This document shows, piece by piece, positions 1 to 14,102 of a stretch of 29,277 nucleotides of DNA. The notes under the pieces are model-generated. The model was not told the DNA's origin, made no database searches, and saw only the letters and a program-made list of their open reading frames with translations. Location: IMG/VR virus record IMGVR_UViG_2660238524_000011; one strand, given 5' to 3'. Numbering within the stretch: the first letter of the stretch is position 1; every line of letters starts with the position of its first letter. Origin of the DNA: a virus (Duplodnaviria > Heunggongvirae > Uroviricota > Caudoviricetes). The position numbers were made by a program, and so were the translations under genes.

Positions 1-390
1 TTACTCTTTTTTCTCCGTATCTGCATCGGGTTCATCAGCAAATAGCTTGCCCTGCATCCGATCCAGTTCTTCTTTTCTTACCCGCTTAACCACGCTGTAG
101 ACCCACTGAAGCGAAACACCAAATTTGCGGGCCAGTTCGTGGTGGTTGCGTCCGTTAAACTCCCTGAAGATTTCCCGGTCGCGCTGACTGACCTTCCATA
201 CCATGCCCATCGGGAAATAAACGTTTTGCCCGCCCCAGACCTGCATCATTCGGTTCGCGACGGCCTGACCAATCTGGTCGGCAACTTCGGGCTCAATATC
301 AATAATCTCGCGAACGGTCTCAGAGGTATGCTGTGCCAGTTCCACCAGGAGTTCCGGCCCCTTACTTCGAAACTGATTCAGGTCGCTCAT
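1..390 (-). CDS. mor: Mor-like middle-operon transcriptional activator (Mor/C family)
   Basis: 129 aa, the length I recall for Mu Mor; C-terminal HTH segment GRNHHELARKFGVSLQWVYSVVKRV typical of the Mor/C family. GGGAG RBS 8 nt upstream of ATG at 390. Last gene of the leftward early operon. Confidence 0.7.
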   Translation of the reverse strand: MSDLNQFRSKGPELLVELAQHTSETVREIIDIEPEVADQIGQAVANRMMQVWGGQNVYFPMGMVWKVSQRDREIFREFNGRNHHELARKFGVSLQWVYSVVKRVRKEELDRMQGKLFADEPDADTEKKE

Positions 391-811
391 GTTTGACTCC
401 CGCAGCTCTGCGCTGCCACTTCTTCAGTTTCTCAATAACACTGCTTGCCTGTTCAGTACTGAGCCAGCGCAGGGCGCTGATGCCCGTTTCCCGCTTGATC
501 CACCTCGCTAATGCATTTTCTGAACGGTCACGAACAATGCCGGCAGCAGCCATTTCAAGCCATAGCGCACGAATTTTCCTGGACTGCGGATGGTTATCAA
601 GCGGTAAACCGGAGCTGGCTTTTCTGGCTGGTTTAACGCGAAAGCCTTTCTTTTTCATGGATTCCAGCACGCAGTTTAGTTGTGTGGTATCCATTCCTTT
701 GGTTGAGGCTTTACCGGTCAGCCCCTGTAACATCTGGCGGTAGGTGTCTTCATCCATACCCAGTTCATTACGGGCAATATGGATAAGCTGTATCAGGCGT
801 TTTTTCTGCAT
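362..811 (-). CDS. GemA/gp16-like Mu prophage regulatory protein (DUF1018-like)
   Basis: 149 aa; resembles Mu-like prophage gp16/GemA family from memory. AAGGAG RBS upstream of ATG at 811. 3' end overlaps the mor start by 29 nt. Confidence 0.55.
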   Translation of the reverse strand: MQKKRLIQLIHIARNELGMDEDTYRQMLQGLTGKASTKGMDTTQLNCVLESMKKKGFRVKPARKASSGLPLDNHPQSRKIRALWLEMAAAGIVRDRSENALARWIKRETGISALRWLSTEQASSVIEKLKKWQRRAAGVKHERPESVSK

Positions 812-812
812 A

Positions 813-1019
813 TCATCTCCTTTTTTTCAGTCTGTCGGCAACAATGTCGGTTGCAGCTGGCAGGGTGACTGGCCAGAACAACATGACGGCGGTCATGTAC
901 AGGATGTAATGCGCGGTGTCGTAGTGCCTGCCATAGCCCAGGGAACGATGAAGTCTTGCGCTGCATGATCCTGCGTACATATACCAGAAAAGAAAACAGA
1001 CAATGGTTTCAGTAGTCAT
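813..1019 (-). CDS. small hydrophobic membrane protein (hypothetical)
   Basis: Track ORF 813..1175 trimmed to the internal ATG at 1019, which has a GGAGG RBS 7 nt upstream. Product begins MTTETIVCFLFWYMYAG, predicted transmembrane. Confidence 0.4.
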   Translation of the reverse strand: MTTETIVCFLFWYMYAGSCSARLHRSLGYGRHYDTAHYILYMTAVMLFWPVTLPAATDIVADRLKKRR

Positions 1020-1239
1020 TCTGAATACCTCCCCATTCGATATGAATATTACGGGCAGCAATGACAGGGTCGTTATTCCACCATGCACCTGACATGTATT
1101 TTTCAACCTGTTCGCGTCCGGCAATAACACCAATTGTGATCCCCGGCCTGACGTTCTTAAAAAAGGCGCGGGCAAAAAGGTATCTGGCAGATATTCGGCA
1201 GGCTTTTAATTTCCGGCTTTTACCTGATAGCGTAATCAT
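1009..1239 (-). CDS. hypothetical early protein (76 aa)
   Basis: GGAGG RBS upstream of ATG at 1239. Start overlaps the stop of the upstream gene (ATGA coupling); its stop overlaps the next start. Confidence 0.4.
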   Translation of the reverse strand: MITLSGKSRKLKACRISARYLFARAFFKNVRPGITIGVIAGREQVEKYMSGAWWNNDPVIAARNIHIEWGGIQNDY

Positions 1240-1919
1240 CTGGCCTCCAGTTTCTGTTGTTCCTGCCCACTGACCGGGCGGTGCAGTCTGACGTTCTGCC
1301 CTTCACGAAACCCCGCATAGCGCGAGGCGTCGCCATTGCGGCTTCTTCCCGGTTTACGCGCCCTGGTGGTTTGCGTCTGCGGGTATTTATGTTCCAGCCA
1401 CTGCTGCATCAGTTCACGCTCATCATCGGTCAGGGCAAAGGACTGTATTTCACTGATAACGGCCAGCACCCAGCCTTCGGCAAACTGGTCTCCACGGCTG
1501 GTGCGGGTGGCGGTTTTTATTCTTTTGTTCTGTGCACTGATATACTGCTGACGCGCCTTTTTCAGCTGACGGGCCAGCACTTCCCAGGTGTATGCAGCCA
1601 GTGCCGCACGTTCCCGGTTGCCGTAGAACCCCACAGACGGATGCGTGCCGGGGTGAATGATGGAGTTAACACCAAATACCTCGCGGATGATGTTCATCAG
1701 GCCCAGCATGTAGCGCGGTGGACGGAGACTGCCTGTCGGCCAGTAGTGACTGATGGTTTCATCAATATCACTCATAGCAATGTCGGAATGTGTGATGCCG
1801 TGAACATCCATCAGTTTACGGGCTCGGCGCAGTGCCAGAGCGGCCTCGTGCGGGTTGCCGGATGCGGCCAGCGCCAGCAACTTTTTCAGTTTCTCAATGT
1901 GTTTATTCTGGTCTGTCAT
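1236..1919 (-). CDS. DUF2786-like domain protein
   Basis: Motif LLALAASGNPHEAALALRRARKLMDVHGI matches my recollection of DUF2786. The ATG at 1919 has a GGAGA RBS and overlaps the upstream stop (ATGA); the track start at 1955 lacks an RBS. Confidence 0.5.
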   Translation of the reverse strand: MTDQNKHIEKLKKLLALAASGNPHEAALALRRARKLMDVHGITHSDIAMSDIDETISHYWPTGSLRPPRYMLGLMNIIREVFGVNSIIHPGTHPSVGFYGNRERAALAAYTWEVLARQLKKARQQYISAQNKRIKTATRTSRGDQFAEGWVLAVISEIQSFALTDDERELMQQWLEHKYPQTQTTRARKPGRSRNGDASRYAGFREGQNVRLHRPVSGQEQQKLEAR

Positions 1920-2131
1920 TGTTCTGTATCTCCGGTATTTTTCTGCCGTTTCCATGCCCGGACAGCGTCGGACAGCTCTTTCAGGCTGTATGCTGCTTTA
2001 AGCTTTTCCCATAACCACTGTGTTGTTATGTGCATCAGCAGGGCAGCCAGGGCTGCCCCCGCACTGAGGCATGTCGCCAGGCCAGTAAGAATCAGTGTCC
2101 ATGCGGTGATTTCCCTGAGTATGTCAGCCAT
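1916..2131 (-). CDS. small membrane protein (71 aa, hypothetical)
   Basis: GGGAGG RBS 6 nt upstream of ATG at 2131. Hydrophobic core ITAWTLILTGLATCLSAGAALAALL. Confidence 0.45.
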   Translation of the reverse strand: MADILREITAWTLILTGLATCLSAGAALAALLMHITTQWLWEKLKAAYSLKELSDAVRAWKRQKNTGDTEQ

Positions 2132-2145
2132 TGAATGCCTCCCGG

Positions 2146-2442
2146 TTACTCGTTCGTGTAAATCACGCCCAGTCGTGCAGCCAGACGTTCCAGTTTTTTC
2201 TGTTTGTGGAAGTCAATCAGCCGGTCCATCCCCTGAAGGCGCAGTTGCTCTGTCATGATTTCCACGTCTGCCAGCTCTGCCGCGAGGTCACTTTCGCTGC
2301 CCTGTCCGTTCAGGTTGCGGGCGGCACTGGCCGCCAGTTCAGCGGCCTCTTCTGCCAGTTTCAGGGCCTGTGCGTCCGGCCCGAAACGCTGCAGGGCCAG
2401 ACGGTAGAGGGCGGTGCGGGTGAGTTCGGTGTTTCGTGTCAT
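2146..2442 (-). CDS. hypothetical early protein (98 aa)
   Basis: Co-oriented and tightly spaced within the early operon; Ala/Leu-rich helical protein. Confidence 0.4.
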   Translation of the reverse strand: MTRNTELTRTALYRLALQRFGPDAQALKLAEEAAELAASAARNLNGQGSESDLAAELADVEIMTEQLRLQGMDRLIDFHKQKKLERLAARLGVIYTNE

Positions 2443-2451
2443 GCCGCGCCC

Positions 2452-2724
2452 TCAGTGCTTCCGGCTGACGGTGATGTGCAGGCCGCCTTCTGCAGTGGTT
2501 TCCATCCGGTACGGCACCTCATGCTCTGCCGTGTGGGTGAGTGTGTTCATCAGTACCTGCAGGGCAGCCTCCTTTCCGTTGGTCGCCACAATGGCCTGTG
2601 TGGCCATGCTGATTAGCGCCGTCAGGACGTGCTTCACATCGGTGAGGTCGCGGCATTCACACTCGTTGACATAGTGTTCAACAAGGGTTCGGGTGCGCTG
2701 TCGTGCTTCCTGTGGGGTAATCAT
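2452..2724 (-). CDS. hypothetical early protein (90 aa)
   Basis: Co-oriented and tightly spaced; start overlaps the stop of 2721..2915 (ATGA). Confidence 0.4.
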   Translation of the reverse strand: MITPQEARQRTRTLVEHYVNECECRDLTDVKHVLTALISMATQAIVATNGKEAALQVLMNTLTHTAEHEVPYRMETTAEGGLHITVSRKH

Positions 2725-2915
2725 TGCGAGTCCTCCCTGTCAGGGCGGGAGAATTCCATGACGGGCACGTCTGCCGAAAAATGCTGGCTGCAGTACGGGC
2801 AGACCAGGGTGACGCGTACCGCAGGGATGTGGTATTTACCGGACATCACGGCGATGGCGCTGTGAAAACGCAGGGCTGTTATATCCCTCTCGCACTGAAT
2901 ACATTTAAATATCAT
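2721..2915 (-). CDS. small zinc-ribbon protein (CxxC...CxxC)
   Basis: 64 aa with paired Cys motifs (CIQC ... CPYC). GAGGAG RBS upstream of ATG at 2915. Confidence 0.45.
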   Translation of the reverse strand: MIFKCIQCERDITALRFHSAIAVMSGKYHIPAVRVTLVCPYCSQHFSADVPVMEFSRPDREDSQ

Positions 2916-3012
2916 GATTTAATTCTCCTCTGTTTCCGGCGTGCAGAAGCCCGCGGCGCTGACGTCGGAATAAAAAAGAAAATGTTTTTATTAAATAATT
3001 AACGTGGTGTGT

Positions 3013-3543
3013 TTACTGCACATCCTGCTCAAAAGGAATTATTGAAAAATCCTCAATGTCGCTTTTAATGGAAATACCGGGAATATTTTTCACGGCCTCT
3101 TTTTCATTCAGGATAGCGTCTTTATTTATTTCCTCTTTTACACGAATAAAGCGCTCAAGCCCCAGACGTCTCAGTAATTCAATAACATTATCCGCCCCAC
3201 GGATACTGACTGATGGCGGACGGTTTCGCCACTGCACCTCGCCGGTGGTGAGGTTAGCGAACTTCACCTTCCCGTTGCCGGTCAGTTCATCACGGTGTGC
3301 CTCACACCATGTCTGAATACCGGACTGCAGTTCGGCCATGCGTTTTTTCAGGCTCTCGGTGAGCGGGGCATAACGTGCGGTGATATCGCCAATGGCGTCA
3401 TTCATTTCTGTTTCAGCCCTGACCAGTTCACGTTGTGCGTCACCGAGTAGTCTGATTCCCTCAATGACCTCTTCACGTGTCCCCGGCACCCAGAGTGCTG
3501 CTGCGGCCTTGATACGTTTTGCACCTTTTGTACTTTTTGCCAT
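3013..3543 (-). CDS. gam: Gam-like host-nuclease inhibitor (Mu Gam/Ku-like DNA end-binding protein)
   Basis: 176 aa; N-terminus MAKSTKGAKRIKAAAA and C-terminus GISIKSDIEDFSIIPFEQ closely resemble Mu Gam as I recall it. Confidence 0.8.
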   Translation of the reverse strand: MAKSTKGAKRIKAAAALWVPGTREEVIEGIRLLGDAQRELVRAETEMNDAIGDITARYAPLTESLKKRMAELQSGIQTWCEAHRDELTGNGKVKFANLTTGEVQWRNRPPSVSIRGADNVIELLRRLGLERFIRVKEEINKDAILNEKEAVKNIPGISIKSDIEDFSIIPFEQDVQ

Positions 3544-3570
3544 TTTTTATGATTTCTCCAGTTGTGCTGA

Positions 3571-3840
3571 TTACCACAAAGATTCCGGCCACACGACGCG
3601 ACAGCCGTGCAGTTCGAAAACGCCCTGACGGAAATATCCCCTGTGGTCATGTCCGGTATACAGATAACAGGCCTTTCCCTGCTCAAGCATGCGCATGCAA
3701 TGCGCACTCCGGGAAACGCGGATGACAGGTTTGTTACCCCTGATGGTGATGCTTTGTACATCCGTGTTCGTCGCCTTAAGCGCCATAATGGCTGACTGCA
3801 CTTTGCTGATTTGCTGGTTGATACCTGTGGTGGATTTCAT
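3571..3840 (-). CDS. hypothetical early protein at the position of Mu kil (89 aa)
   Basis: Start lies 2 nt past the B-like stop (TAATAATG context). Function assigned by position only. Confidence 0.35.
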   Translation of the reverse strand: MKSTTGINQQISKVQSAIMALKATNTDVQSITIRGNKPVIRVSRSAHCMRMLEQGKACYLYTGHDHRGYFRQGVFELHGCRVVWPESLW

Positions 3841-3842
3841 TA

Positions 3843-5009
3843 TTAAACCCCTTTGACAACGTCAGCGTTGACCTGTGGAACCCCGATTTCAGCGGCCAGA
3901 TTCATGGCGGCTATTACCAGGTTACTGACGGCCAGCGGATACAGCAGGCTGACCATATTTTTACGGTGACTTCCCGGATTGCTCAGGCGGGCACGTATGG
4001 CATCCACTGCACCGGCGTCCATAATGTCCGTCAGCTGTTTACCGGCCCGTTGCAGTTTGAACGTCAGAAATTCTTCAAGGTTATTGTCCAGAGGCAGAAG
4101 TTCGACCACCTCACAGCGCTGAACGACTTCACGGACTTCCATATTGCGTTCAGACAGTTTTGTCGCCAGTTCCGGCTGGCCAATCAGCACGATGGACAGC
4201 AGTTTTTTGAAACCGGACTCCAGCTCAAAAAAGCGTTTGAGGTGTTTCAGTGTCGGAATGGGCAGACTGTGGGCCTCCTCAATCACCAGAACGTGGCTGA
4301 ACCCCGCCTGGCTGCTGTCTTTCAGGACGCGATGCAACTGGCGAAAACGGGCGTCCTGACTGCGTCTGATGCTTTCCAGTGGTGCGATGGTACTGATAAT
4401 GGCTTCGGCAATAGCTGCTGCCTTCAGGGTTTTCCCTTTCACATCGTTGTCTTCCATAGCGATGATGTATGGCTCGATAACAATTACCGGCGCATTCTCG
4501 CGGTTGATACGTTCAGTCAGGTCGCGGCGCAGCGTGGATTTACCCGCACCGGACTCACCGATGACGGCCATAAACCCACCATGACGGGCTGTCTGGTACA
4601 GCGCCTCACGCACGTAGCGAATGTCCGGGGTGGTGAACACATCATCAGAACCCTGCATGGCTTCGTCGGCGAACGGGTCACGGAAAAGACCAAACGCTTT
4701 TTTGGTTGCTGGAAATAACACCTGTTTTTTGAGTAACATATTCTCTTCCTCACTGAGGCTCGTTTTATCTGTGGTACCCGCTGTACGGGGCGTGGCCGCG
4801 CCCTGTACAGCATCAAAACTCTTCGTTGTATCAATCCCCTGACTTTCCAGCCAGGACGCAAGACGCCGGCGCACTTCTCCGGGGCTGGTGCGGGGCCACG
4901 CGTTATGATTCACAATCTGGGCCAGCGTGGCCTCAGAAACATCGACAGCTCTCGCCACCACCGCCTGTGGAATACGGGCCTCTTTCAGTTGCTGCTTCAG
5001 TACCAGCAT
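3843..5009 (-). CDS. transposition helper ATPase (MuB-like, AAA+ P-loop)
   Basis: Walker A VIGESGAGKST; located immediately downstream of the transposase. GAGGAGG RBS 5 nt upstream of ATG at 5009; the track start at 5048 would overlap the A gene by 29 nt. Confidence 0.7.
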   Translation of the reverse strand: MLVLKQQLKEARIPQAVVARAVDVSEATLAQIVNHNAWPRTSPGEVRRRLASWLESQGIDTTKSFDAVQGAATPRTAGTTDKTSLSEEENMLLKKQVLFPATKKAFGLFRDPFADEAMQGSDDVFTTPDIRYVREALYQTARHGGFMAVIGESGAGKSTLRRDLTERINRENAPVIVIEPYIIAMEDNDVKGKTLKAAAIAEAIISTIAPLESIRRSQDARFRQLHRVLKDSSQAGFSHVLVIEEAHSLPIPTLKHLKRFFELESGFKKLLSIVLIGQPELATKLSERNMEVREVVQRCEVVELLPLDNNLEEFLTFKLQRAGKQLTDIMDAGAVDAIRARLSNPGSHRKNMVSLLYPLAVSNLVIAAMNLAAEIGVPQVNADVVKGV

Positions 5010-5019
5010 GTTTCCCTCC

Positions 5020-6789
5020 TCAGTTGCCGTTAACAATGCTGATAACACTGCTGCGGGCCGGTGTGGTCAGCGTGGCCATGACTTCATCCAGTGCGGCTTC
5101 CGGTACGCCGTCCGGGTACTGTGCCGTTAACTGGCGGTAATGTTCCGGCGTCCAGGTAAGGCCGTCGGCGCTGAACTTATCGCGCAGGGCTTTCGCGGCC
5201 TCCACATGAGTCATGGGACGTTGTTCAGTGCGCGGCCCGCGTACGTCAGAGGCCTGACCACGCTTCGGCATATAGGCCGGAAGTGTGGTGTCGTCGATAT
5301 GTTTATACGGGTCAAGCCGCCCGCCGAACGGCAGCGCCTTCGCCTTGCGTGCGGCGGCTGCATCTGCGGCGTTGTCTGTACCGGTAACCAGCGCTTCGGT
5401 TTCTTTTGCCGCCATCTGTGCCGGGGTTTCCGGCAGGGCTTTGTAACTTTCGCCAAATACCGCCGCGCCTTCAGCAAAGCCAAACTCGTTCTTTCTGACC
5501 TCTTCGACCAGGAAGAACGTCTCGTGGCCGTCCTCACCGGTCAGAACCACCTGTGCCACATCGCTGCGCCATGGGTTACGGGTAATCATCAGTTTTTCAC
5601 CAACCAGTACGCCCGGTACCGTTGATACGTCAAATTCAGTGCCCCGGAACGAGACACGAAGTTTTGGCGTGACTTTGCGGAGTTCTGGTGCCGCCACAGC
5701 CAGTTCACGACATACCTCAACGGAAGGCGCTTTTTTCAGCTGCTCAGCAGTAATCTTCAGCCAGATATCCGTGCGGGTTTTACCGTGGCGGCTGTGAACA
5801 GCCGTGGCGTTAAAGTGGCTGCGCCATTTCGCGGCCAGCGCGTTGAGTTCTTCCAGACTGTGAACCGGCCGGAACTTCAGACCCGGCTCCAGCTTGCGTT
5901 CGATAATGTCACGCGCCTTTTCCACCTGTCCGGTGGCGCGGGCGTTATGCGGCTTGTGCGCTATCAGGTCGATGCCCAGTGAGCGGCACATGTTTTTCGT
6001 CATACCCGCGGTGTTTGCCGAGCCGGGGTCGAGATAGAGTATTTTCGGCACGCCGTGCAGCACGTCTGCGCCGCCACGCTCCTGCATGGCGTTGATAAGC
6101 ACAGAACACAGGTTCTCACCTGATTCCGCGCCCGTCACATACTCAACGTAAATCCAGCCGCTGGCATGGTCGGTAATCTCGTAACTCCACACGCGGTCAC
6201 TGGCGATACGGGCAAGGTTAGCGGGCTTGTTCTTGTAGAACTTCGCGCTGTCCATCACCTGCAGCCCTTTATGTCCATTGCTCAGGTAGTAAAGCGTGCA
6301 GAGTGAGGCGTCAATCTGCCAGACATGATTGGGATGCAGACTGGCCACTTCGGTATGTGGTGCAGGGGCATCCAGTTGTTCCGGGTGCAGGCCATAGTTA
6401 CGCAGAGCACGGCTGATGGCATCTTCAGACAACGGGAAAAACTCACTGGTGGTTTCATCTGTTCTGCCTGCGGTGATAAAGCCGTTAGCCCGCAGGGTTT
6501 CCACTGCATCTGCGATGGAATAGAGACGCTTACCGTTCTTGCGGGTGGCCTCACGCAGTGTGGCAGATATCAGCGCGGCTTCGTCGCGGGTCAGGGCGCT
6601 GCGCCCGGCATCGGCGCGTTTTTTGCGTTTATCAGTCACAGATACCTCCTTCAGCCTGCGCAGCAGAGTGGCGCGGGACATGCCAAGTTCAGCACAGGCA
6701 GCGTCGTATATTGCACCGCGTTTACCATGCCCCGCGTCACGTGCCGCGCGGGCGACATAAACCAGTCGTTCAGTCAGGGCAGCATTCAT
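5020..6789 (-). CDS. DDE transposase (Mu A-like, RNase H-fold integrase core)
   Basis: 589 aa with N-terminal HTH region and candidate DDE residues in HVWQIDAS, LYLDPGSANT and HNARATGQVE. Confidence 0.8.
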   Translation of the reverse strand: MNAALTERLVYVARAARDAGHGKRGAIYDAACAELGMSRATLLRRLKEVSVTDKRKKRADAGRSALTRDEAALISATLREATRKNGKRLYSIADAVETLRANGFITAGRTDETTSEFFPLSEDAISRALRNYGLHPEQLDAPAPHTEVASLHPNHVWQIDASLCTLYYLSNGHKGLQVMDSAKFYKNKPANLARIASDRVWSYEITDHASGWIYVEYVTGAESGENLCSVLINAMQERGGADVLHGVPKILYLDPGSANTAGMTKNMCRSLGIDLIAHKPHNARATGQVEKARDIIERKLEPGLKFRPVHSLEELNALAAKWRSHFNATAVHSRHGKTRTDIWLKITAEQLKKAPSVEVCRELAVAAPELRKVTPKLRVSFRGTEFDVSTVPGVLVGEKLMITRNPWRSDVAQVVLTGEDGHETFFLVEEVRKNEFGFAEGAAVFGESYKALPETPAQMAAKETEALVTGTDNAADAAAARKAKALPFGGRLDPYKHIDDTTLPAYMPKRGQASDVRGPRTEQRPMTHVEAAKALRDKFSADGLTWTPEHYRQLTAQYPDGVPEAALDEVMATLTTPARSSVISIVNGN

Positions 6790-6792
6790 TGG

Positions 6793-7707
6793 TTATGCCT
6801 CCAGCCCGTTAATCTGTGGCGTCGGCTCAGTCAGCCATGAAGGCGCTGCATTGCCTGTTGGCTCGTCCGGCAGGTCAAATGTGGAGCGCAGGCTACGCGC
6901 TGTGCTTTCCAGTTGACAGACCAGGCCTGCCATGAAGTCTCTGGGGGTATCAATCATGTTTTCAGCACAATATGCGCACAGCGTCTCAAAAGCGCTGGAC
7001 AGTCGGACGGCGATAGCAGATTCCGCCTCAACCGCTAATGCTGTTACTTCCGCCCGCAGCTTCTTAACCTCCTCATCAGGCTCAGGCGGCTGAATACGGG
7101 ATTTCTTCTCCAGTCTGGTGGAGAGTGAATCTATTTTTTCATTTTTGTCGGCGAGTACGCGCTGTTGTGCTGCGTTGGTTTCGCGCGCTTCGCGCAGGGC
7201 CTGACGCAATTCACGTACTGACATGCGATCAACGTCGTCAAGCGTCAGGCCGGCAACTGTGCCGCCGTCGGCCAATTCATCAAGTTCTTCATTATCCAGA
7301 ACCATCAGGTCGTACAGTTTGGCTTTCCCCAAAACGCTCAACGTTGAGCGTTTTGTTGGCTCATCACCTTCTCCCAAAAACTTCATACTGGCTTGCATCA
7401 TGCGGCGAGCAACTTGTGGTGCAAGTCCGAGTTCATTTTCTAAAATGTTTGTAAAATCACCGTGTGGCTCATTTTCTTTTAAGATGATCAGCCGCTTACC
7501 CGCTTCCAGCATAGATTCAGCACTCTGCGCCATATAAAAACGTGCTTCGTGAACAATGCGATCACGTTCATAAGGCAGTCCATCACCAAACTGCTGCATA
7601 ATTTCCATGCGATGCTGTGTCATAGCGTTCAAATTGACATTGATGTTATCTGACAGCGGAACCTCAACATTCAGTTCAGTGTTAACGGGTGATTTGGTGC
7701 GTCCCAT
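6793..7707 (-). CDS. conserved Mu-like early protein (304 aa, coiled-coil; copy 1)
   Basis: Immediately upstream of the A gene; paralog at 11101..12021 (about 85% identity by eye). Acidic and coiled-coil rich. Confidence 0.55.
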   Translation of the reverse strand: MGRTKSPVNTELNVEVPLSDNINVNLNAMTQHRMEIMQQFGDGLPYERDRIVHEARFYMAQSAESMLEAGKRLIILKENEPHGDFTNILENELGLAPQVARRMMQASMKFLGEGDEPTKRSTLSVLGKAKLYDLMVLDNEELDELADGGTVAGLTLDDVDRMSVRELRQALREARETNAAQQRVLADKNEKIDSLSTRLEKKSRIQPPEPDEEVKKLRAEVTALAVEAESAIAVRLSSAFETLCAYCAENMIDTPRDFMAGLVCQLESTARSLRSTFDLPDEPTGNAAPSWLTEPTPQINGLEA

Positions 7708-7717
7708 TGATTACTCC

Positions 7718-8026
7718 TTACAAACGACTACCTGAAATAACTCGTTGGTTGATTTCGTTAATACGATCCTGTGCACGCGCCATCTCGTGACTGTGAGCCA
7801 TGGCGATCTGTAGTAACTGGATTCCCGGTGCGAAACGTCCGTTCTCTAATTTCATGGCCAGTCCCTCTTCAATAAGGGTATTAAGTGCTCGATTGATATT
7901 CGCCGGGGACTCCCCCAGGGCTGATGCCAGTTCACCGTTAGAAACACCGTTCAGAGCATGACCGCGTAGAGCTTTGAGTACACGTAGGATGCGGGTCCCA
8001 GAACTGGAAATATTTACTTTACTCAT
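7718..8026 (-). CDS. winged-helix HTH DNA-binding protein (copy 1)
   Basis: Track ORF 7718..8089 trimmed to the ATG at 8026 (MSKVNISSSGTRILRVLKALRGH) by analogy with copy 2. HTH-like segment NGELASALGESPANINRALNTLIEEG. Confidence 0.5.
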   Translation of the reverse strand: MSKVNISSSGTRILRVLKALRGHALNGVSNGELASALGESPANINRALNTLIEEGLAMKLENGRFAPGIQLLQIAMAHSHEMARAQDRINEINQRVISGSRL

Positions 8027-8078
8027 GTCACATTTCCATTTTTGCAATATGTGATAACCTGTTGCATATGTGGAAAAT

Positions 8079-8267
8079 TTATGCCGCATTTGACGTGGGT
8101 TTTAATCCCAGTTTTACGGCAATTTCATGGGCTTTGCCGTAACGAGCTTTGGTCTGTCCATTGAGAACACGATAGACCTCATTGCGGCTGTAGCCGTGTT
8201 CTTCGGCCCAGCGGGTAAACGTGATACCACGCTGACGGAAGAGATTTTTAACTTGTTCGGAAGTCAT
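8079..8267 (-). CDS. Ner-like small DNA-binding regulator (first gene of early operon, copy 1)
   Basis: 62 aa with HTH segment GITFTRWAEEHGYSRNEVYRVLNG. Divergent from the repressor gene and first gene of the leftward operon. Confidence 0.55.
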   Translation of the reverse strand: MTSEQVKNLFRQRGITFTRWAEEHGYSRNEVYRVLNGQTKARYGKAHEIAVKLGLKPTSNAA

Positions 8268-8353
8268 TGTTGTCTCCTTTGTTGATGCAATGATGTTTGT
8301 TTTATATGTGATAGATTATGAGAACTATTGTTCTCATTGTCAATGAGGTTTAT
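8268..8353. promoter_or_regulatory. divergent promoter/operator region 1, with palindrome ATGAGAAC-N4-GTTCTCAT at 8318-8337
   Basis: Perfect 8-bp inverted repeat with 4-bp spacer read directly from the sequence, between divergent Ner-like and repressor genes. TTGATG at 8282-8287 is a possible -35 element. Confidence 0.5.
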
Positions 8354-8779
8354 GTGAATTTTGATTCTCTTTGCGCGTCGCGGTTCAAAGCTGAGCGTTC
8401 GCGGTTATCACTCAAGCAGGCTGAAGTAGCAGCCCTTTGTGGCGTTTCAAGAGAAATGTGGGGGAAATATGAACGAGGGGTTGCTGTTCCCGGAGGTGAG
8501 TTACTTGCAGCCTTTGCAAGAATTGGGGCCAATGTACAGTTCATTCTTACCGGGGAGTCATCAGGTATAACTTTATCACGTGATGAAATGGAGTTACTGC
8601 AGCACTACCGGCAGGCACCATTACAGGTCAAAGGTTCAGTTTTGTCGGCCTTGACTACTGGCTCCTCCAGAGAACGGGCGGAACAGGTTATTCATGGAGA
8701 TGTTCTGGGGAATGTTATCAAAGGTAACGTAACCATAGGAACAGGTGGAATAATGAACAAAAATACCAAGAGAAGATGA
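8318..8779 (+). CDS. XRE/Cro-CI-type HTH repressor (immunity repressor 1)
   Basis: HTH LSLKQAEVAALCGVSREMWGKYERG. The track ATG at 8318 lies inside the operator palindrome and lacks an RBS; in-frame GTG at 8354 preceded by GAGG is an alternative start. Stop overlaps the next start (ATGA). Confidence 0.65.
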   Translation: MRTIVLIVNEVYVNFDSLCASRFKAERSRLSLKQAEVAALCGVSREMWGKYERGVAVPGGELLAAFARIGANVQFILTGESSGITLSRDEMELLQHYRQAPLQVKGSVLSALTTGSSRERAEQVIHGDVLGNVIKGNVTIGTGGIMNKNTKRR

Positions 8780-9762
8780 GTAAAGAGAAGCAAACAGTTA
8801 ACGGGGATGTGGGTAACGTTGTCAGCGGTGATGTTACCATTCATAACTATTCTGCTGACATACTTCCTTCGGCCCAGCAACCAATTTCGTTGCTGCAAAA
8901 ACGCGATTTACACAGATTGATGGATGAATTGGTTGATCTGGGGGAAAGTAAGCGCGAGCTATGGATGACGATCCACACGAAACTTAATACCAAAACAGTT
9001 AATGAAATGACTGCGGCTGATTATCATGGTGCGGTTGAGATCCTTCAGAGATATGCACAACAGATCCAGAATATGAAGGACTGTAATCTTCTGGTCAGCA
9101 AAATAATGGCGCTTACTGACCCTGGGTATCGTCTTGACCGTGACAGATACTGTCTGAAGCATTTCGGTACAACCCATCTTAAAGGCCTAGACAAAGAGCA
9201 GTTGCAGGCTGTGTTTGGTTATTTTGATGATCTGCTGAATATTCGTGATGAGAGTAAAACTCTATCACCTCCATCGGAAAGCGGTGCAAAATCAGTCGCA
9301 ACTGTACCAACCAGAAGCCGGAAGCCTCATGTAGTAGTGTTGGGGGGAGTGTTAGTTCTTGTAGCAATATTTTTCGTGGGAATGATTGTGTTCGCTGGTA
9401 AATGGGGAAATGCCAAAGCAGTAGCTTCTACTGAAACCAGCGTTTTTAACATTAAAACCAACGATAAAATAATAGAAGATTCCATCCCCGCACTGCGCAG
9501 CATGTTTCCAGGGTTAAATAAGTACTCAGATGATTTCCATTCGGTTTCAAGCTACAAGCAAAAAACGGGCTGGCATACCCTTAAATTTACTGTATCAGCA
9601 AAGGCATCCGTCCCCGAAAATTATAGTGTTAAGGGCAAGGTTTGTTACATTAACATAAGCCCTGATGGTAGTTATGCTCGGGTTTTGACTGCTCCATGTC
9701 GTTCACTGCTACTTGATCAGCAAAGCACTCCTGACAGTAAATACCGTTTTATTCTTAAATAG
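8776..9762 (+). CDS. membrane-anchored protein of unknown function (328 aa)
   Basis: Single hydrophobic segment VVVLGGVLVLVAIFFVGMIVFAG between a roughly 165-aa N-terminal domain and a roughly 120-aa C-terminal domain. Visibly AT-rich relative to neighbours. Confidence 0.55.
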   Translation: MSKEKQTVNGDVGNVVSGDVTIHNYSADILPSAQQPISLLQKRDLHRLMDELVDLGESKRELWMTIHTKLNTKTVNEMTAADYHGAVEILQRYAQQIQNMKDCNLLVSKIMALTDPGYRLDRDRYCLKHFGTTHLKGLDKEQLQAVFGYFDDLLNIRDESKTLSPPSESGAKSVATVPTRSRKPHVVVLGGVLVLVAIFFVGMIVFAGKWGNAKAVASTETSVFNIKTNDKIIEDSIPALRSMFPGLNKYSDDFHSVSSYKQKTGWHTLKFTVSAKASVPENYSVKGKVCYINISPDGSYARVLTAPCRSLLLDQQSTPDSKYRFILK

Positions 9763-9843
9763 AAAATAACAGCTGAATTACCATGGGATCAGAAAAAAGA
9801 CAAAGGCGGCATCATGCTGCGTTCTGAAATTTTAATGTAAAAG

Positions 9844-10434
9844 GTGATGAACATGGCAGGGATTCAGGTTATCGCAGGAAGTTTTCCTAAAGGGTGGGCA
9901 AGCATGGGGTTCGGTACCATCGTGTTTGCCAAAAAACCAAAACAAGGCTTTCCTGAAAATATTGTATTAAATCTGAAAGAAGAGCTTTTATCGATTGAAC
10001 TTGCGGATAGTGAAGAGGAAAGCCGTATAGGTAAGGCGGCAGGCGCAGGTTTGCTTGGTGGATTAATCTTTGGTGGTGCAGGGTTGGTCATTGGAGGTTT
10101 GCTTGGTGCGGCGGACAAGACGAAAAAAACTATCACTTTTAAGGCAATGTTTACGGGAAATAGGTTACTTCTGGCTAAAACAGATTCAAAAACTTTTGTA
10201 AAACTTCAGTCAATTGCTGCTGATAATGCCCATAACGCATCTGTAATCAACATGAAGCAAACTAACAGGGGCGATGTTTCTTCTCGTAAACAACTAACAG
10301 AAAATCCACAGCAGCAAGACTTACCTGCGCCCGCTACAACAGTAAAAATGACTGCCAAAGATAAGTTAGAATCGGCTCTTGGGCTGGGAATCATCGTTAT
10401 AGCTGTTTGGGCAATAATACACTTCTTTTTTTAG
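9844..10434 (+). CDS. glycine-zipper membrane protein of unknown function
   Basis: Gly-rich segment GAGLLGGLIFGGAGLVIGGLLGAA and C-terminal hydrophobic helix. Likely start is the ATG at 9853, preceded by AAGG. Confidence 0.5.
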   Translation: MMNMAGIQVIAGSFPKGWASMGFGTIVFAKKPKQGFPENIVLNLKEELLSIELADSEEESRIGKAAGAGLLGGLIFGGAGLVIGGLLGAADKTKKTITFKAMFTGNRLLLAKTDSKTFVKLQSIAADNAHNASVINMKQTNRGDVSSRKQLTENPQQQDLPAPATTVKMTAKDKLESALGLGIIVIAVWAIIHFFF

Positions 10435-10435
10435 T

Positions 10436-10460
10436 GCAGCCCTTCAGGGCTGTTTCTGTT
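10436..10460 (+). terminator. putative intrinsic terminator
   Basis: Hairpin GCAGCCC-ttca-GGGCTG (stem one side one base longer) followed by TTTCTGTT, directly after the stop of 9844..10434. Confidence 0.5.
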
Positions 10461-10471
10461 CAGGAGGTATC

Positions 10472-10768
10472 TTAAGGATTATCCGGGGCGTTTTCCTGTT
10501 TGCCGTACTTCGGAGACGAACAACATTCTGTTGGCTGACCGGTGAGTTTACGTAACTCCTTCATGAGCAGCTCCTGATCGTAAACTGTCATCAGTGCCGC
10601 AATGGTGGCATGCAGTGCATCGGGCAGTATCCAGGGACGCAGCAGAGTGGCGCGGGACATGCCAAGTTCAGCACAGGCAGCGTCGTATATTGCACCGCGT
10701 TTACCATGCCCCGCGTCACGTGCCGCGCGGGCTGTTTCAACCAGTTTTTCAGTCAGTGCCGGGGTCAT
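10472..10768 (-). pseudogene. chimeric in-frame fusion: transposase N-terminus (44 aa) joined to an internal fragment of the P-loop gene
   Basis: 10638-10732 is identical to 6659-6753 (A gene 5' region). 10493-10636 matches 14970-15113 with 3 mismatches in 144 bp. Product is MTPALTEKL...SRATLL followed by RPWILPDALHATIAALM. Confidence 0.55.
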
Positions 10769-10783
10769 AGCTTGTCTTCCCTG

Positions 10784-11101
10784 TTATCCGATTCTGGCGG
10801 CAATTTTTCTGGCGAGGTCGCACAGTGTTTCGCCATCGCAGGTTTTCACCACGGTATTTACCGGTTGCGGTGCAACTACCGGGCGTAATGCTGACTGATT
10901 CTGCAGACGTCTTATCTGCTGCATCAGCATCACCTCCATCGTCAGTACAAACGGGTGCGTCTCCTGTGCGGGTACGCAGATTTCACCGGAAGGGGTCACC
11001 ACGCGGAAACCCTGCACCATCTCCGGCAGCAGATTACACAGTGCGTGCCCCAGTGCCTCCGGGCTGTCCATCAGGGTATTTTGTGTGTTATTCGTATTCA
11101 T
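10784..11101 (-). CDS. hypothetical protein (105 aa), present only in control module 2
   Basis: Start abuts the stop of 11101..12021. No counterpart between the 304-aa gene and A in copy 1. Confidence 0.35.
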   Translation of the reverse strand: MNTNNTQNTLMDSPEALGHALCNLLPEMVQGFRVVTPSGEICVPAQETHPFVLTMEVMLMQQIRRLQNQSALRPVVAPQPVNTVVKTCDGETLCDLARKIAARIG

Positions 11102-12021
11102 TACTGCATATCCTCCGGTCGGTTGATTTCAGGTTCCGGTTCGGTCAGCCAGGCGGGGGCATCGTTACCCGATGGAGCGGCCTCAAGGTCAAACGTCTCA
11201 CGTAATGCATGAACACTGCGTTCAATCTGGCAGACCAGACCGGCCATGAAATCTCTGGGGGTATCGATCATGTTTTTGGTGCAGTATTCACACAGGGTCT
11301 CAAAAACACTGGACAGCCGGACGGCGATAGCCGATTCGGCCTCAACCGCTAATGCCGTCACTTCCGCCCGCAATTTTTTCAGTTCTTCGTCTGGCGGCGG
11401 AGGTTGCAGGCGCGATTTCTTCTCCAGTTTTGTGGCCAGTTCGTTGATTTTTTCGTCCTTTCCGGCAAGCACCTGTTGCTGAGCTGCGTTGGTTTCGCGC
11501 GCTTCACGCAGGGCGGCCTTCAGTTCGCGGCTGGTCATGCGATCAATATCATCAAGCGTTGCACCGGCGACGGTTCCACCATCAGCTAATGCGTCGAGTT
11601 CTTCGTCATCCAGAACCATCAGTTCATATAACTTGGTTTTTCCCAAAACGCTCAGCGCTGAGCGTTTTGGCTGTTCATCTCCATTGCCGAGAAATTTCAC
11701 GCTGGCCTGCATCATGCGACGAGCTACCTGTGGTGCTAATCCGAGGTCGTTTTCCAGAATATTTGTGAAATCACCATGCGGTTCATTTTCTTTTAAGATG
11801 ATCAGCCGCTTACCCGCTTCCAACATAGATTCAGCACTCTGCGCCATATAAAAACGTGCTTCGTGAACGATGCGTTCACGTTCATAAGGCAGTCCATCAC
11901 CAAACTGCTGCATGATCTCCATGCGATGCTGTGTCATGGCATTCAGGCTGACGTTGAGATCATCCGACAGCGGTACATCGGCGTTCAGTTCAGTGTTAAT
12001 CGGTGATTTGGTACGTCCCAT
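11101..12021 (-). CDS. conserved Mu-like early protein (306 aa; copy 2)
   Basis: Paralog of 6793..7707. Confidence 0.55.
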   Translation of the reverse strand: MGRTKSPINTELNADVPLSDDLNVSLNAMTQHRMEIMQQFGDGLPYERERIVHEARFYMAQSAESMLEAGKRLIILKENEPHGDFTNILENDLGLAPQVARRMMQASVKFLGNGDEQPKRSALSVLGKTKLYELMVLDDEELDALADGGTVAGATLDDIDRMTSRELKAALREARETNAAQQQVLAGKDEKINELATKLEKKSRLQPPPPDEELKKLRAEVTALAVEAESAIAVRLSSVFETLCEYCTKNMIDTPRDFMAGLVCQIERSVHALRETFDLEAAPSGNDAPAWLTEPEPEINRPEDMQ

Positions 12022-12031
12022 TGATTACTCC

Positions 12032-12340
12032 TTACAAACGACTACCTGAAATGACACGTTGGTTAATTTCGTTAATACGATCCTGTGCACGTGCCATCTC
12101 GTTACTGTGGGCCATGGCGATCTGCAGTAACTGGATGCCCGGTGCAAAACGTCCGTTCTCCAGTTTCAGAGCCAGCCCTTCTTCAATGAGGGTGTTGAGT
12201 GCCCGGTTGATGTTTGCCGGTGACTCGTGCAGTGCTGTCGCCAGTTCACCGTTAGAAATACCGTTCAGGGCATGACCGCGCAGCGCTTTGAGTACCCGGA
12301 GGATGCGACTGCCGGAGCTTGAAACATTCGTCTTACTCAT
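12032..12340 (-). CDS. winged-helix HTH DNA-binding protein (copy 2)
   Basis: Paralog of 7718..8026. Start at the ATG at 12340 (MSK...) with AGAGG RBS 7 nt upstream. Confidence 0.5.
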   Translation of the reverse strand: MSKTNVSSSGSRILRVLKALRGHALNGISNGELATALHESPANINRALNTLIEEGLALKLENGRFAPGIQLLQIAMAHSNEMARAQDRINEINQRVISGSRL

Positions 12341-12392
12341 CTGCATACCTCTTTTGCGATATGTGATAACCTTTTACAAAGACTCAAAATAT

Positions 12393-12581
12393 TTAGGCCG
12401 CCTGAGCTGTTGATTTCAGTCCCAACTTCACGGCGATTTCATGGGATTTACCGTAACGGGCTTTGGTCTGCCCGTTGAGAACGCGGTATACCTCATTGCG
12501 GTTGTAGCCGTTTTCTTCTGCCCAGCGGGTGAAAGTGATCCCGCGCTGGCGGAAGAGAGCTTTGACTTGTTCTGCAGTCAT
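12393..12581 (-). CDS. Ner-like small DNA-binding regulator (copy 2)
   Basis: 62 aa, about 87% identical to 8079..8267. Confidence 0.55.
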   Translation of the reverse strand: MTAEQVKALFRQRGITFTRWAEENGYNRNEVYRVLNGQTKARYGKSHEIAVKLGLKSTAQAA

Positions 12582-12674
12582 CGTTGTCTCCTTTGTTGAT
12601 GCAATGATGTTTGCCTTATATGTGTTAGATTATTGCTCATAATTATGAGCATATCAAGATAGAGATTCACTTTT
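12582..12674. promoter_or_regulatory. divergent promoter/operator region 2, with 18-bp palindrome TGCTCATAATTATGAGCA at 12634-12651
   Basis: Perfect palindrome read from the sequence; a third half-site TATGAGCA overlaps the repressor 2 start codon at 12674-12681. Confidence 0.5.
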
Positions 12675-13116: not shown

Positions 13117-13148
13117 ACCGGAAAGCATTGTGCTTTCCGGTTTTGTTT
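13117..13148 (+). terminator. putative intrinsic terminator
   Basis: 10-bp stem ACCGGAAAGC/GCTTTCCGGT with 5-nt loop, followed by TTTTGTTT. Downstream of repressor 2 and abutting the Dam stop codon. Confidence 0.55.
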
Positions 13149-13910
13149 CAGAAGTTGCAGATTAGCAGTTCACGGCGCGGCGTGGGTTTACCCGCCAGAC
13201 TGTAGTTGATATTCACTGTCTGTATGTTCAGTCCAGTGAACACCTCGCGCATCTGCGGGATGTCGTTCACCGAAATTATCATTTTTCCTCTGATGCACCG
13301 GGCCAGCTCTGCCAGCCGCGAGTAGTTCCCTTCAGGAAAATCCACACCATAGCCTTCCGTACCCAGGTACGGTGGGTCGCAGTAGAACAGCGTGTGCGGA
13401 CGATCATAACGCTCAATGCACTGTTGCCAGTCCATGTGTTCTATGACTGTTCTGGAAAGCCGCAGGTGTGCCGCTGACAGTTCTTCTTCAATACGTAGCA
13501 GGTTGAAGCGTGGCGGGGATGTGGTGGAGGTACCGAAGCTGTGCTCTGCCACCTTGCCGCCAAACGCCTGCTTCTGAAGGTAGTAGAACCGTGCCGCACG
13601 CTGGATATCCGTCAGTGTTTCTTCCGGGGTGATCTGCAGCCATTTGTAGATCTGACGGCTGACCAGCGCCCATTTGAACTGGCGGACAAATTCTTCCAGG
13701 TGATGCTTTACCACCCGGTACAGATTCACCAGTTCACCGTTGATATCATTGATGACTTCGATCTTGCCGGGTGTCTTAAGAAAATAGAGCGCTGCTGCCC
13801 CACAAAACGGCTCCACATAACATTCATGCGCCGGAAACAGCGGCAGAATGTGTTTTGCAAGGCGGCGTTTGCCACCAATCCACGGCACGATGGGTAATGT
13901 CTGCATTTTC
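13148..13910 (-). CDS. dam: DNA adenine methyltransferase (Dam-like, D12-class N6-MTase)
   Basis: DPPY catalytic motif (FYCDPPYLG) and N-terminal SAM-binding region (IVPWIGGKRR ... VEPFCGAAA). Track ORF trimmed to the ATG at 13910 (MKMQTLPIVPW). Confidence 0.75.
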
Positions 13911-14102
13911 ATAATCTGCAAGCCTTTTACAATTATTAAAAAATATGGCAGTCTGGTCAGGTCTCGCGAGACTGACTGAACCTTGGTCGGCTCACAGCGC
14001 ATTCCTGTGGGGCGATGACCAGCCCGGCTTTCGGGTGCCGGGCTGGTCGTTCTTTCATGATGCGGCAGGGATGGCGGGATTTCTGTTAATGTGGTTTAGG
14101 GA

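Follow-up and report, generated by a model that had tools for sequence, protein, structure and literature searches.

What kind of genes fill positions 813-2915 of the virus record IMGVR_UViG_2660238524_000011, and what might they do for the phage that carries them? The record is a 29,277-nucleotide stretch of Caudoviricetes DNA, which is referred to here, over its whole length, as the window. A preliminary description of this locus had pictured a cluster of six small, overlapping early open reading frames (ORFs), with no recognizable product, in the position where phage Mu has its semi-essential (SE) early region. We consider it likely that the cluster is the Mu-type SE early region, or distal early operon, of a BcepMu-like transposable prophage (PhiKM, or the copy located beside ycaL in many E. 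coli genomes). The cluster consists of a four-gene backbone, encoding a zinc ribbon, a MazG-like candidate, a DUF2786/DUF7168 protein, and a small hydrophobic protein, together with three exchangeable inserts.

The placement at the Mu SE region was borne out by the surrounding gene order. Positions 813-2915 are filled by seven tightly packed minus-strand genes between gam and gemA/mor. The minus-strand order as a whole reproduces the layout of Mu, running from a helix-turn-helix (HTH) regulator through a DUF3102 protein, A, B, an ORF of 89 amino acids (aa), Gam, and the cluster to GemA and Mor, so that the cluster lies between the transposition genes A and B and gemA/mor, on the same strand. 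A 2.4 kb query around the cluster was 100% identical to Escherichia phage PhiKM (PQ738613, genus Bcepmuvirus), which came from a uropathogenic E. coli. The cluster stretch was matched in 629 of 5,426 complete E. coli genomes (~12%), mostly at an identity of at least 99%. In RefSeq strain 4/1-1, the prophage end adjoins ycaL, and mor is the outermost phage gene.

Mu itself has 14 ORFs in its SE region, which belongs to a long early transcript and encodes functions that are dispensable and toxic to the host (PMC3325207, PMC4553209); hosts survive better when the region is deleted (PMC3325207). The cluster resembles that region in its position after B and ending at gemA/mor, in its strand logic, and in its many short, packed ORFs, and it is flanked by homologs of Gam, GemA, and Mor. 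There are also differences. For the cluster genes that were compared, no homology to the SE ORFs of Mu was detected, a tblastn search of the phage collection with the 76-, 98-, and 227-aa proteins having named no Mu record. In addition, the early arm is inverted relative to the late genes here, unlike in Mu and as in BcepMu-type phages, and mor therefore abuts the host gene ycaL.

Within the cluster, the gene map required correction. Seven genes are present rather than six, as the 120-aa frame of the preliminary description is in fact two genes (813-1019 and 1009-1239). The 120-aa ORF itself (813-1175, with a TTG start) was rejected on the basis of phrog_6436, which covers only residues 53-120, the RefSeq start at 1019, the ribosome-binding site (RBS), and the N-termini of homologs. 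The 76-aa gene at 1009-1239 overlaps this ORF in a different frame. A second correction concerns the DUF2786 gene, which likely starts at 1919, where an ATGA overlap joins it to the upstream stop, and not at 1955. At 227 aa, its product does not deserve the label “small.” Overlaps between genes were confirmed at four of the seven junctions (three ATGA overlaps of 4 nucleotides and one overlap of 11 nucleotides), while the remaining junctions have gaps of 1-14 nucleotides.

Are all seven ORFs genuine genes? We concluded that they are because each matches a PHROG family (E 1e-34 to 1e-77), each is preceded by a correctly spaced RBS (GGAG or GGGAGG), RefSeq annotation covers the cluster genes, and the sequences are under purifying selection. 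The ratio of nonsynonymous to synonymous substitution (dN/dS) was calculated against Klebsiella phage KP12, Escherichia phage Phi06_2974 B, and two divergent E. coli prophages. It was 0.08-0.47 for five of the six genes with diverged copies, the gene at 813-1019 being saturated; the 71-aa gene had no diverged comparator and stands outside this set. The frames are also kept across 19 genome loci from 17 Enterobacterales species. The contrary idea, that the ORFs are chance open frames in noncoding or differently coded DNA, finds a foothold in the GenBank record of PhiKM, where a plus-strand coding sequence (approximately window positions 2781-3002) stands in place of the 64-aa gene and runs across part of it. 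We rejected this plus-strand ORF on the conservation of, and selection on, the minus-strand frame. The PHROG matches to seven of seven genes, the purifying selection, the RefSeq annotation, the RBSs, the coupled stops and starts, the invariant cysteines and conserved catalytic acidic residues described below, and the cross-species conservation of the frames all speak against chance, and this alternative is effectively refuted. A search of Rfam found no RNA family within positions 1-8400. Coordinates for the cluster and its neighbors are collected in Table 1.

Table 1. Genes of the early-region cluster, followed by the neighboring genes of the early arm, with positions in the window
Feature	Positions	Strand	Family match
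64-aa C4 zinc-ribbon-like protein (WP_001295928), first after gam	2721-2915	minus	
90-aa protein, variable insert	2452-2724	minus	phrog_3691, E 4e-56
98-aa MazG-like candidate (WP_001295929)	2146-2442	minus	phrog_2245, E 5.5e-34
71-aa single-pass membrane protein, variable insert	1916-2131	minus	phrog_3958, E 1e-41
227-aa DUF2786 + DUF7168 protein (WP_000132039)	1236-1919	minus	Pfam
76-aa basic protein, mobile variable insert	1009-1239	minus	phrog_3681, E 6.5e-55
68-aa hydrophobic protein directly upstream of gemA	813-1019	minus	phrog_6436, E 1.2e-44
HTH regulator	7718-8089	minus	
DUF3102 protein	6793-7707	minus	
Transposase A	5020-6789	minus	
B (ExeA/AAA)	3843-5009	minus	
89-aa ORF	3571-3840	minus	phrog_2041, function not assigned
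Gam (host-nuclease inhibitor), upstream boundary of the cluster	3013-3543	minus	Pfam Phage_Mu_Gam, 9.9e-41
GemA, downstream boundary of the cluster	362-811	minus	Pfam GemA, 8.3e-41
Mor, after GemA	1-390	minus	

To describe how the cluster varies among relatives, the presence or absence of each gene was scored in 80 viral-contig loci around GemA relatives and in the 19 genome loci, which were chosen around relatives of the zinc-ribbon protein. The order 89-aa ORF, Gam or DUF3164, zinc ribbon, MazG-like protein, DUF2786/7168 protein, 68-aa hydrophobic protein, and GemA is conserved. The 90-, 71-, and 76-aa genes have been gained or lost, and it is this pattern that separates the backbone from the inserts. 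Related prophages have alternative cargo in the same region, including a PF04447 dATP/dGTP pyrophosphohydrolase and several families without a Pfam match. A natural IS1B insertion lies inside the cluster of E. coli S10EC (NZ_CP076697). Together with fusions created by deletion and the loss of single genes in relatives, it suggests that lysogens may tolerate the loss of cluster genes. In a sister clade (e.g., loci L003, L045-L076, and L090-L102), a 203-aa DUF3164 protein (Pfam 3e-80) replaces Gam at the same position; Pseudomonas phage LPB1 likewise has DUF3164, followed by small ORFs.

The claim that no product could be recognized fails for two proteins, the 98-aa MazG-like protein and the 227-aa protein with DUF2786 and DUF7168. 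The family to which the former belongs, phrog_2245, is annotated as a nucleoside triphosphate pyrophosphohydrolase, and the current Prokaryotic Genome Annotation Pipeline gives the 98-aa protein the same name. An exhaustive search with this protein returned 1,625 cluster representatives at E <= 1e-3. Across 58 relatives, residue E31 is invariant, and E32, E35, E56, and D59 are each at least 90% conserved, so that the protein has the EExxE...ExxD acidic motif of the MazG type. Ten of the 58 gave matches to Pfam MazG that were weak and below threshold, and profile matches in the PDB were marginal, to the nucleotide pyrophosphohydrolases 5ie9 (E 0.036) and 2gta (E 0.24). The gene has a dN/dS of 0.12-0.25. 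Some comparisons weigh against the assignment: the protein scored 15.5 bits against Pfam PRA-PH (cut-off 21.3), its sole NCBIfam match, to TIGR03188, reached 14.6 bits where the cut-off is 42.7, and an hhalign comparison of its profile with E. coli MazG aligned the motifs (EETYE...ELGDL) at negligible probability. On balance, we treat the protein as a candidate nucleoside triphosphate pyrophosphohydrolase of the MazG-like, all-alpha type; this is a working assignment. The MazG-like homologs of three relatives (L077, L079, and L074) have a C-terminal extension of ~70 aa with the motif LLEDWCGAVPNSAFIGATD...; the copy in the window is without this extension.

For the MazG-like gene, a phenotype has been published. 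In a transposon-directed insertion site sequencing (TraDIS) experiment with the sequence type 131 (ST131) strain NCTC 13441, insertions in NCTC13441_02987, which encodes WP_001295929.1, were depleted under the DNase colicin E9 (PMC6351738). The log fold change was -1.96 with ethylenediaminetetraacetic acid (EDTA), and the effect was significant also in the absence of EDTA; the study lists the gene among those conferring a fitness benefit under the colicin, and in that table, it was the one gene without a stated envelope function (PMC6351738). Five neighboring locus tags were searched for in the supplementary text of the same study, and none was present there (PMC6351738). The depletion would be compatible with a role in keeping a stressed host viable.

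Of the features noted at the outset, the paired CxxC motifs were confirmed and belong to the 64-aa protein at 2721-2915. Residues C5, C8, C39, and C42 are invariant in 35 homologs, down to ~25-30% identity, as in a C4 ribbon with two CxxC pairs, and structure prediction gave a confident all-beta model. Sequence and profile searches of the PDB returned nothing significant for this protein. The best viral fold match of the model was weak, to a 133-aa Gordonia phage protein named MazG-like. A word-indexed search for homologs recovered mostly frameshifted, near-identical copies and gave a very shallow alignment. In the loci examined, the zinc-ribbon gene always follows Gam or DUF3164. In the clade without the 90-aa gene, the zinc-ribbon stop overlaps the start of the MazG-like gene (ATGA) just past an A7 run (L048, L050, and L003). 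One relative, L052, has an A8 run instead of A7, which fuses the two genes into a single ORF and may reflect homopolymer slippage or an assembly error. Two further fusions were seen among database proteins (P0004 and P0016): one has the zinc ribbon in frame with the C-terminus of the 90-aa protein, and in the other, zinc-ribbon residues 1-26 are joined to Mor with the whole cluster deleted.

The second recognizable product, the 227-aa protein, passes the gathering cut-offs for both PF23771 (DUF7168; 90.4 bits, cut-off 25.5) and PF10979 (DUF2786; 42.9 bits, cut-off 23.9), and both domains are present in all full-length homologs. The protein is basic, with an isoelectric point of 10.1 and an invariant motif, KRIK..T..R.D.FAEGW, and its gene is under the strongest purifying selection in the cluster (dN/dS 0.08-0.13). 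DUF2786/7168 was found in 171 phage records, and full-length homologs occur in Mu-like phages of Pseudomonas, Ralstonia, Curvibacter, and Alteromonadaceae. Sequence and profile searches of the PDB gave nothing significant, and the structural model had only weak, KH-like matches. A literature search on PhiKM, DUF2786, and Mu-like prophages of ST131 found no functional study of the cluster genes.

The breadth of this family also provides a comparison with a second group of Mu-like phages. In Pseudomonas phages of the D3112/B3 type, the left arm has core ORFs and regions of genomic plasticity between B and gemA (PMC4378225). As in our cluster, packed and variable ORFs of fewer than 100 codons lie among conserved ones, and in LPB1, a D3112-type phage, a full-length DUF2786/7168 homolog (34-37% identity) is found two genes before gemA. 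Of the genes themselves, only the DUF2786/7168 gene was shown to be common to both. A further difference is that the proven anti-CRISPR genes of D3112/B3-type phages are located elsewhere, between the protease/scaffold and head genes (PMC4378225). Conservation of this kind might indicate that the backbone genes, chiefly those for the DUF2786/7168 protein and the zinc ribbon, are auxiliary transposition, replication, or regulatory factors and not effectors aimed at the host. They would then correspond functionally to arm, cim, lig, or sot of Mu; functions of this type have been reported from the Mu SE region (PMC4553209). The full-length presence of DUF2786/7168 in Mu-like phages of several groups, its place close to gemA in LPB1, its selection, charge, and invariant motif, the weak KH-like matches, and the constant position of the zinc ribbon behind Gam or DUF3164 are all consistent with such a role. 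We regard this as a possible explanation to be held tentatively, and one that is less probable than the broader SE-region reading stated at the outset.

The three inserts present a different picture. The 90-aa gene is absent from most relatives, and in the clade of the window it sits exactly between the zinc-ribbon and MazG-like genes. Its product shows just 76-83% identity in prophages that match at 95-98% in the genes on either side; its dN/dS of 0.38-0.47 is the highest in the cluster. The N-terminal half is hypervariable, with an allelic mosaic at residues 8-36. The 71-aa gene occurs only in the E. coli-type clade and is deleted in several close relatives. The 76-aa gene, which is joined to the DUF2786 gene by an ATGA overlap, is patchy among relatives; its dN/dS was 0.16 against a diverged copy and 1.19 against close copies, the latter from too few changes to interpret. 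Searches of Pfam, PHROGs, NCBIfam, and PDB profiles with the 90- and 76-aa proteins found no match beyond their own PHROG families. Variation also extends to one backbone position. The 68-aa slot is occupied in nearly all relatives. Compared with most other alleles, the one in the window reaches only 38-47% identity, and two loci have a copy that is 79% identical. The slot shows allelic replacement, with identities of 38-40% between flanking genes that match at 96%.

Outside Mu-like phages, a P22-like Salmonella phage has a 73% identical homolog of the 76-aa protein in the accessory block adjoining int. Its neighbors there are DUF4222, EaA/DUF550, and TraR genes, with DNA methyltransferase genes ~0.7-2 kb away. 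This block, at the classical “ea” position, resembles the present cluster in that it holds the homolog, there among short, nonessential early genes, and a dATP/dGTP pyrophosphohydrolase of the DUF550 type, like the one in the block, is also alternative cargo in relatives of the window prophage. The two differ in that the P22-like phage is a lambdoid podovirus with different regulation and has one gene in common with the cluster.

Could the cluster be an anti-defense island? On this account, the small proteins, at least some and perhaps most of them, would be made early as dedicated inhibitors of host immunity (restriction, clustered regularly interspaced short palindromic repeats (CRISPR), or abortive infection of the TIR or cyclic-oligonucleotide-based antiphage signaling (CBASS) type), thereby protecting the phage DNA as it enters or replicates. 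The early-operon position is what such an island would have, as are the mosaic gain and loss of the 90-, 71-, and 76-aa genes, the hypervariable half and top dN/dS of the 90-aa protein, the replacement of alleles in the 68-aa slot, the company that the 76-aa homolog keeps in a P22-like phage, and the alternative cargo of related prophages. A precedent has also been reported for the MazG-like protein. Atd1, a phage MazG-like protein, is reported to deplete (p)ppGpp and to blunt TIR-based abortive infection (bioRxiv 10.1101/2022.06.09.495361). Like Atd1, which comes from Pectobacterium phage PcCB7V, the 98-aa protein is a small, single-domain MazG-like protein with acidic catalytic motifs, and it lies among accessory early genes. 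The resemblance does not extend to sequence. No relationship between the two was detectable, the 98-aa protein does not qualify as Atd1-type by sequence, and a tblastn search with it against 50,697 phage records returned five records, with no Pectobacterium phage among them.

Other results count against an island of this kind. The Pfam, PHROG, and NCBIfam matches of the seven proteins included no characterized anti-defense family, the search having included no dedicated anti-defense hidden Markov model set. Scans with NCBIfam and with PADLOC, which models defense rather than anti-defense proteins, gave no significant match for the cluster proteins. Four of the seven genes form a syntenic backbone across the 19 loci, and DUF2786/7168 is syntenic in a Pseudomonas phage as well, which is atypical for counter-defense; dN/dS is below 1 wherever divergence suffices. 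The results neither contradict an anti-defense role nor give it direct support. Such a role is plausible, if unproven, for the three variable genes and perhaps for the MazG-like enzyme, and it suits the backbone poorly. As an explanation of the cluster as a whole, we find it doubtful.

The hydrophobic proteins raise one more possibility. Two membrane proteins had been predicted in the cluster, and the prediction is secure for the 71-aa protein, in which residues 12-36 form a single, clear hydrophobic span (KD19 1.98). The 68-aa protein, whose gene has a strong GGGAGG RBS, contains two stretches of hydrophobic and aromatic residues along with a WP..LP motif that is conserved, and it probably has two membrane segments, a borderline call by hydropathy. 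Small membrane proteins in a prophage that is very common in clinical E. coli, and perhaps other products of the cluster, could act as lysogenic-conversion or superinfection-exclusion factors, which the prophage would express to benefit its host and not in lytic growth. The TraDIS result bears on this, as insertions in the MazG-like gene altered fitness under colicin E9 in an ST131 lysogen that had not been induced, implying that the gene is expressed to some extent in the lysogen or affects it. Against this reading, the genes lie deep in a repressed early operon without a promoter-like site of their own, and natural deletions, fusions, and an IS1 insertion are apparently tolerated. We consider this possibility improbable.

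Returning to the Mu-type SE region as the preferred explanation, how might the cluster work? A promoter-like site, TTGACA-17-CATAAT, was located at 8315-8343 on the minus strand and agrees with the consensus at 11 of 12 positions, making it a candidate for a Pe-like early promoter. Within 813-2915, a consensus scan of the minus strand detected nothing resembling a terminator. Most likely, a single early promoter drives the cluster together with the genes for transposase A/B and Gam. Expression would follow derepression of the prophage or infection, with the products acting within the first minutes. The seven genes are translationally coupled. As a block, they may condition the host for replicative transposition. 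The MazG-like enzyme would hydrolyze a nucleotide, either a noncanonical deoxynucleoside triphosphate or an alarmone such as (p)ppGpp, so that the cell remains viable and permissive. Binding to nucleic acid, or to a host or partner protein, is a possible role for the zinc ribbon and the basic DUF2786/7168 protein, and the envelope or division may be the target of the small membrane proteins, by analogy with Kil-type early functions. The variable inserts would fit the phage to particular hosts, possibly as counter-defense.

Several observations pull against this scheme. The scan for promoters and terminators used consensus sequences only, and the sites that it found were no more numerous than in shuffled sequence. 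The binding role offered for the DUF2786/7168 protein and the zinc ribbon is a guess from charge and zinc-ribbon class, because neither of the two modeled proteins has a significant structural relative. Hydropathy of the 68-aa protein is borderline (maximum KD19 1.52). Lastly, the TraDIS effect is small and unvalidated and could have a cause other than loss of the enzyme.

Outside the cluster, further features of the window bear on the early arm. The 89-aa ORF between B and Gam occupies the position of kil in Mu; its identity is 59-70% in most relatives and 28-33% in the most distant ones. Compared with PhiKM, the window has ~3.9 kb of extra DNA (6778-10637 compared with 10638-12633). This includes a second copy, 82% identical, of an early-control module with DUF3102 and an IclR-like HTH (6903-8319 vs. 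11217-12633), and the 3' end of the transposase gene is also repeated (6659-6780 vs. 10638-10759, 93%). Two related Mu-like immunity regions seem to have been combined here. A D12-class N6-adenine DNA methyltransferase is encoded at 13148-14002 on the minus strand (Pfam 8.7e-29), within a region (~8-15 kb) of 42-52% guanine-cytosine (GC) content between the early arm and late genes of ~58% GC. This enzyme could serve as a self-protection or anti-restriction function.

The cluster is, then, an ordinary accessory early region of a known and very common Mu-like prophage. Its genes are already in the public records of hundreds of genomes, mostly annotated as hypothetical proteins, and nothing in it would surprise a phage specialist. 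What the analysis adds is a corrected gene map, with seven genes and two mis-called starts or frames put right, and a set of leads. The main ones are the MazG-like gene, with its published transposon phenotype in ST131, and the fast-evolving 90-aa protein. Further leads are the mobile 76-aa protein that is common to P22-like phages and the DUF2786/7168 protein found in the Mu-like phages of several proteobacterial genera. A more speculative thought, which we think unlikely, is that the zinc-ribbon and MazG-like proteins form an early module that keeps the host alive by destroying a nucleotide alarm signal, be it (p)ppGpp or a defense second messenger, while the 90-aa insert is an inhibitor that tracks a polymorphic E. 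coli defense protein. This idea draws on the ATGA coupling of the pair in most relatives, the L052 fusion, and the weak fold match to the MazG-like protein of the Gordonia phage. If it were true, the region would be a widespread and clinically relevant counter-defense and stress-tolerance module, carried by about 12% of complete E. coli genomes and by the ST131 strain used in the TraDIS study.

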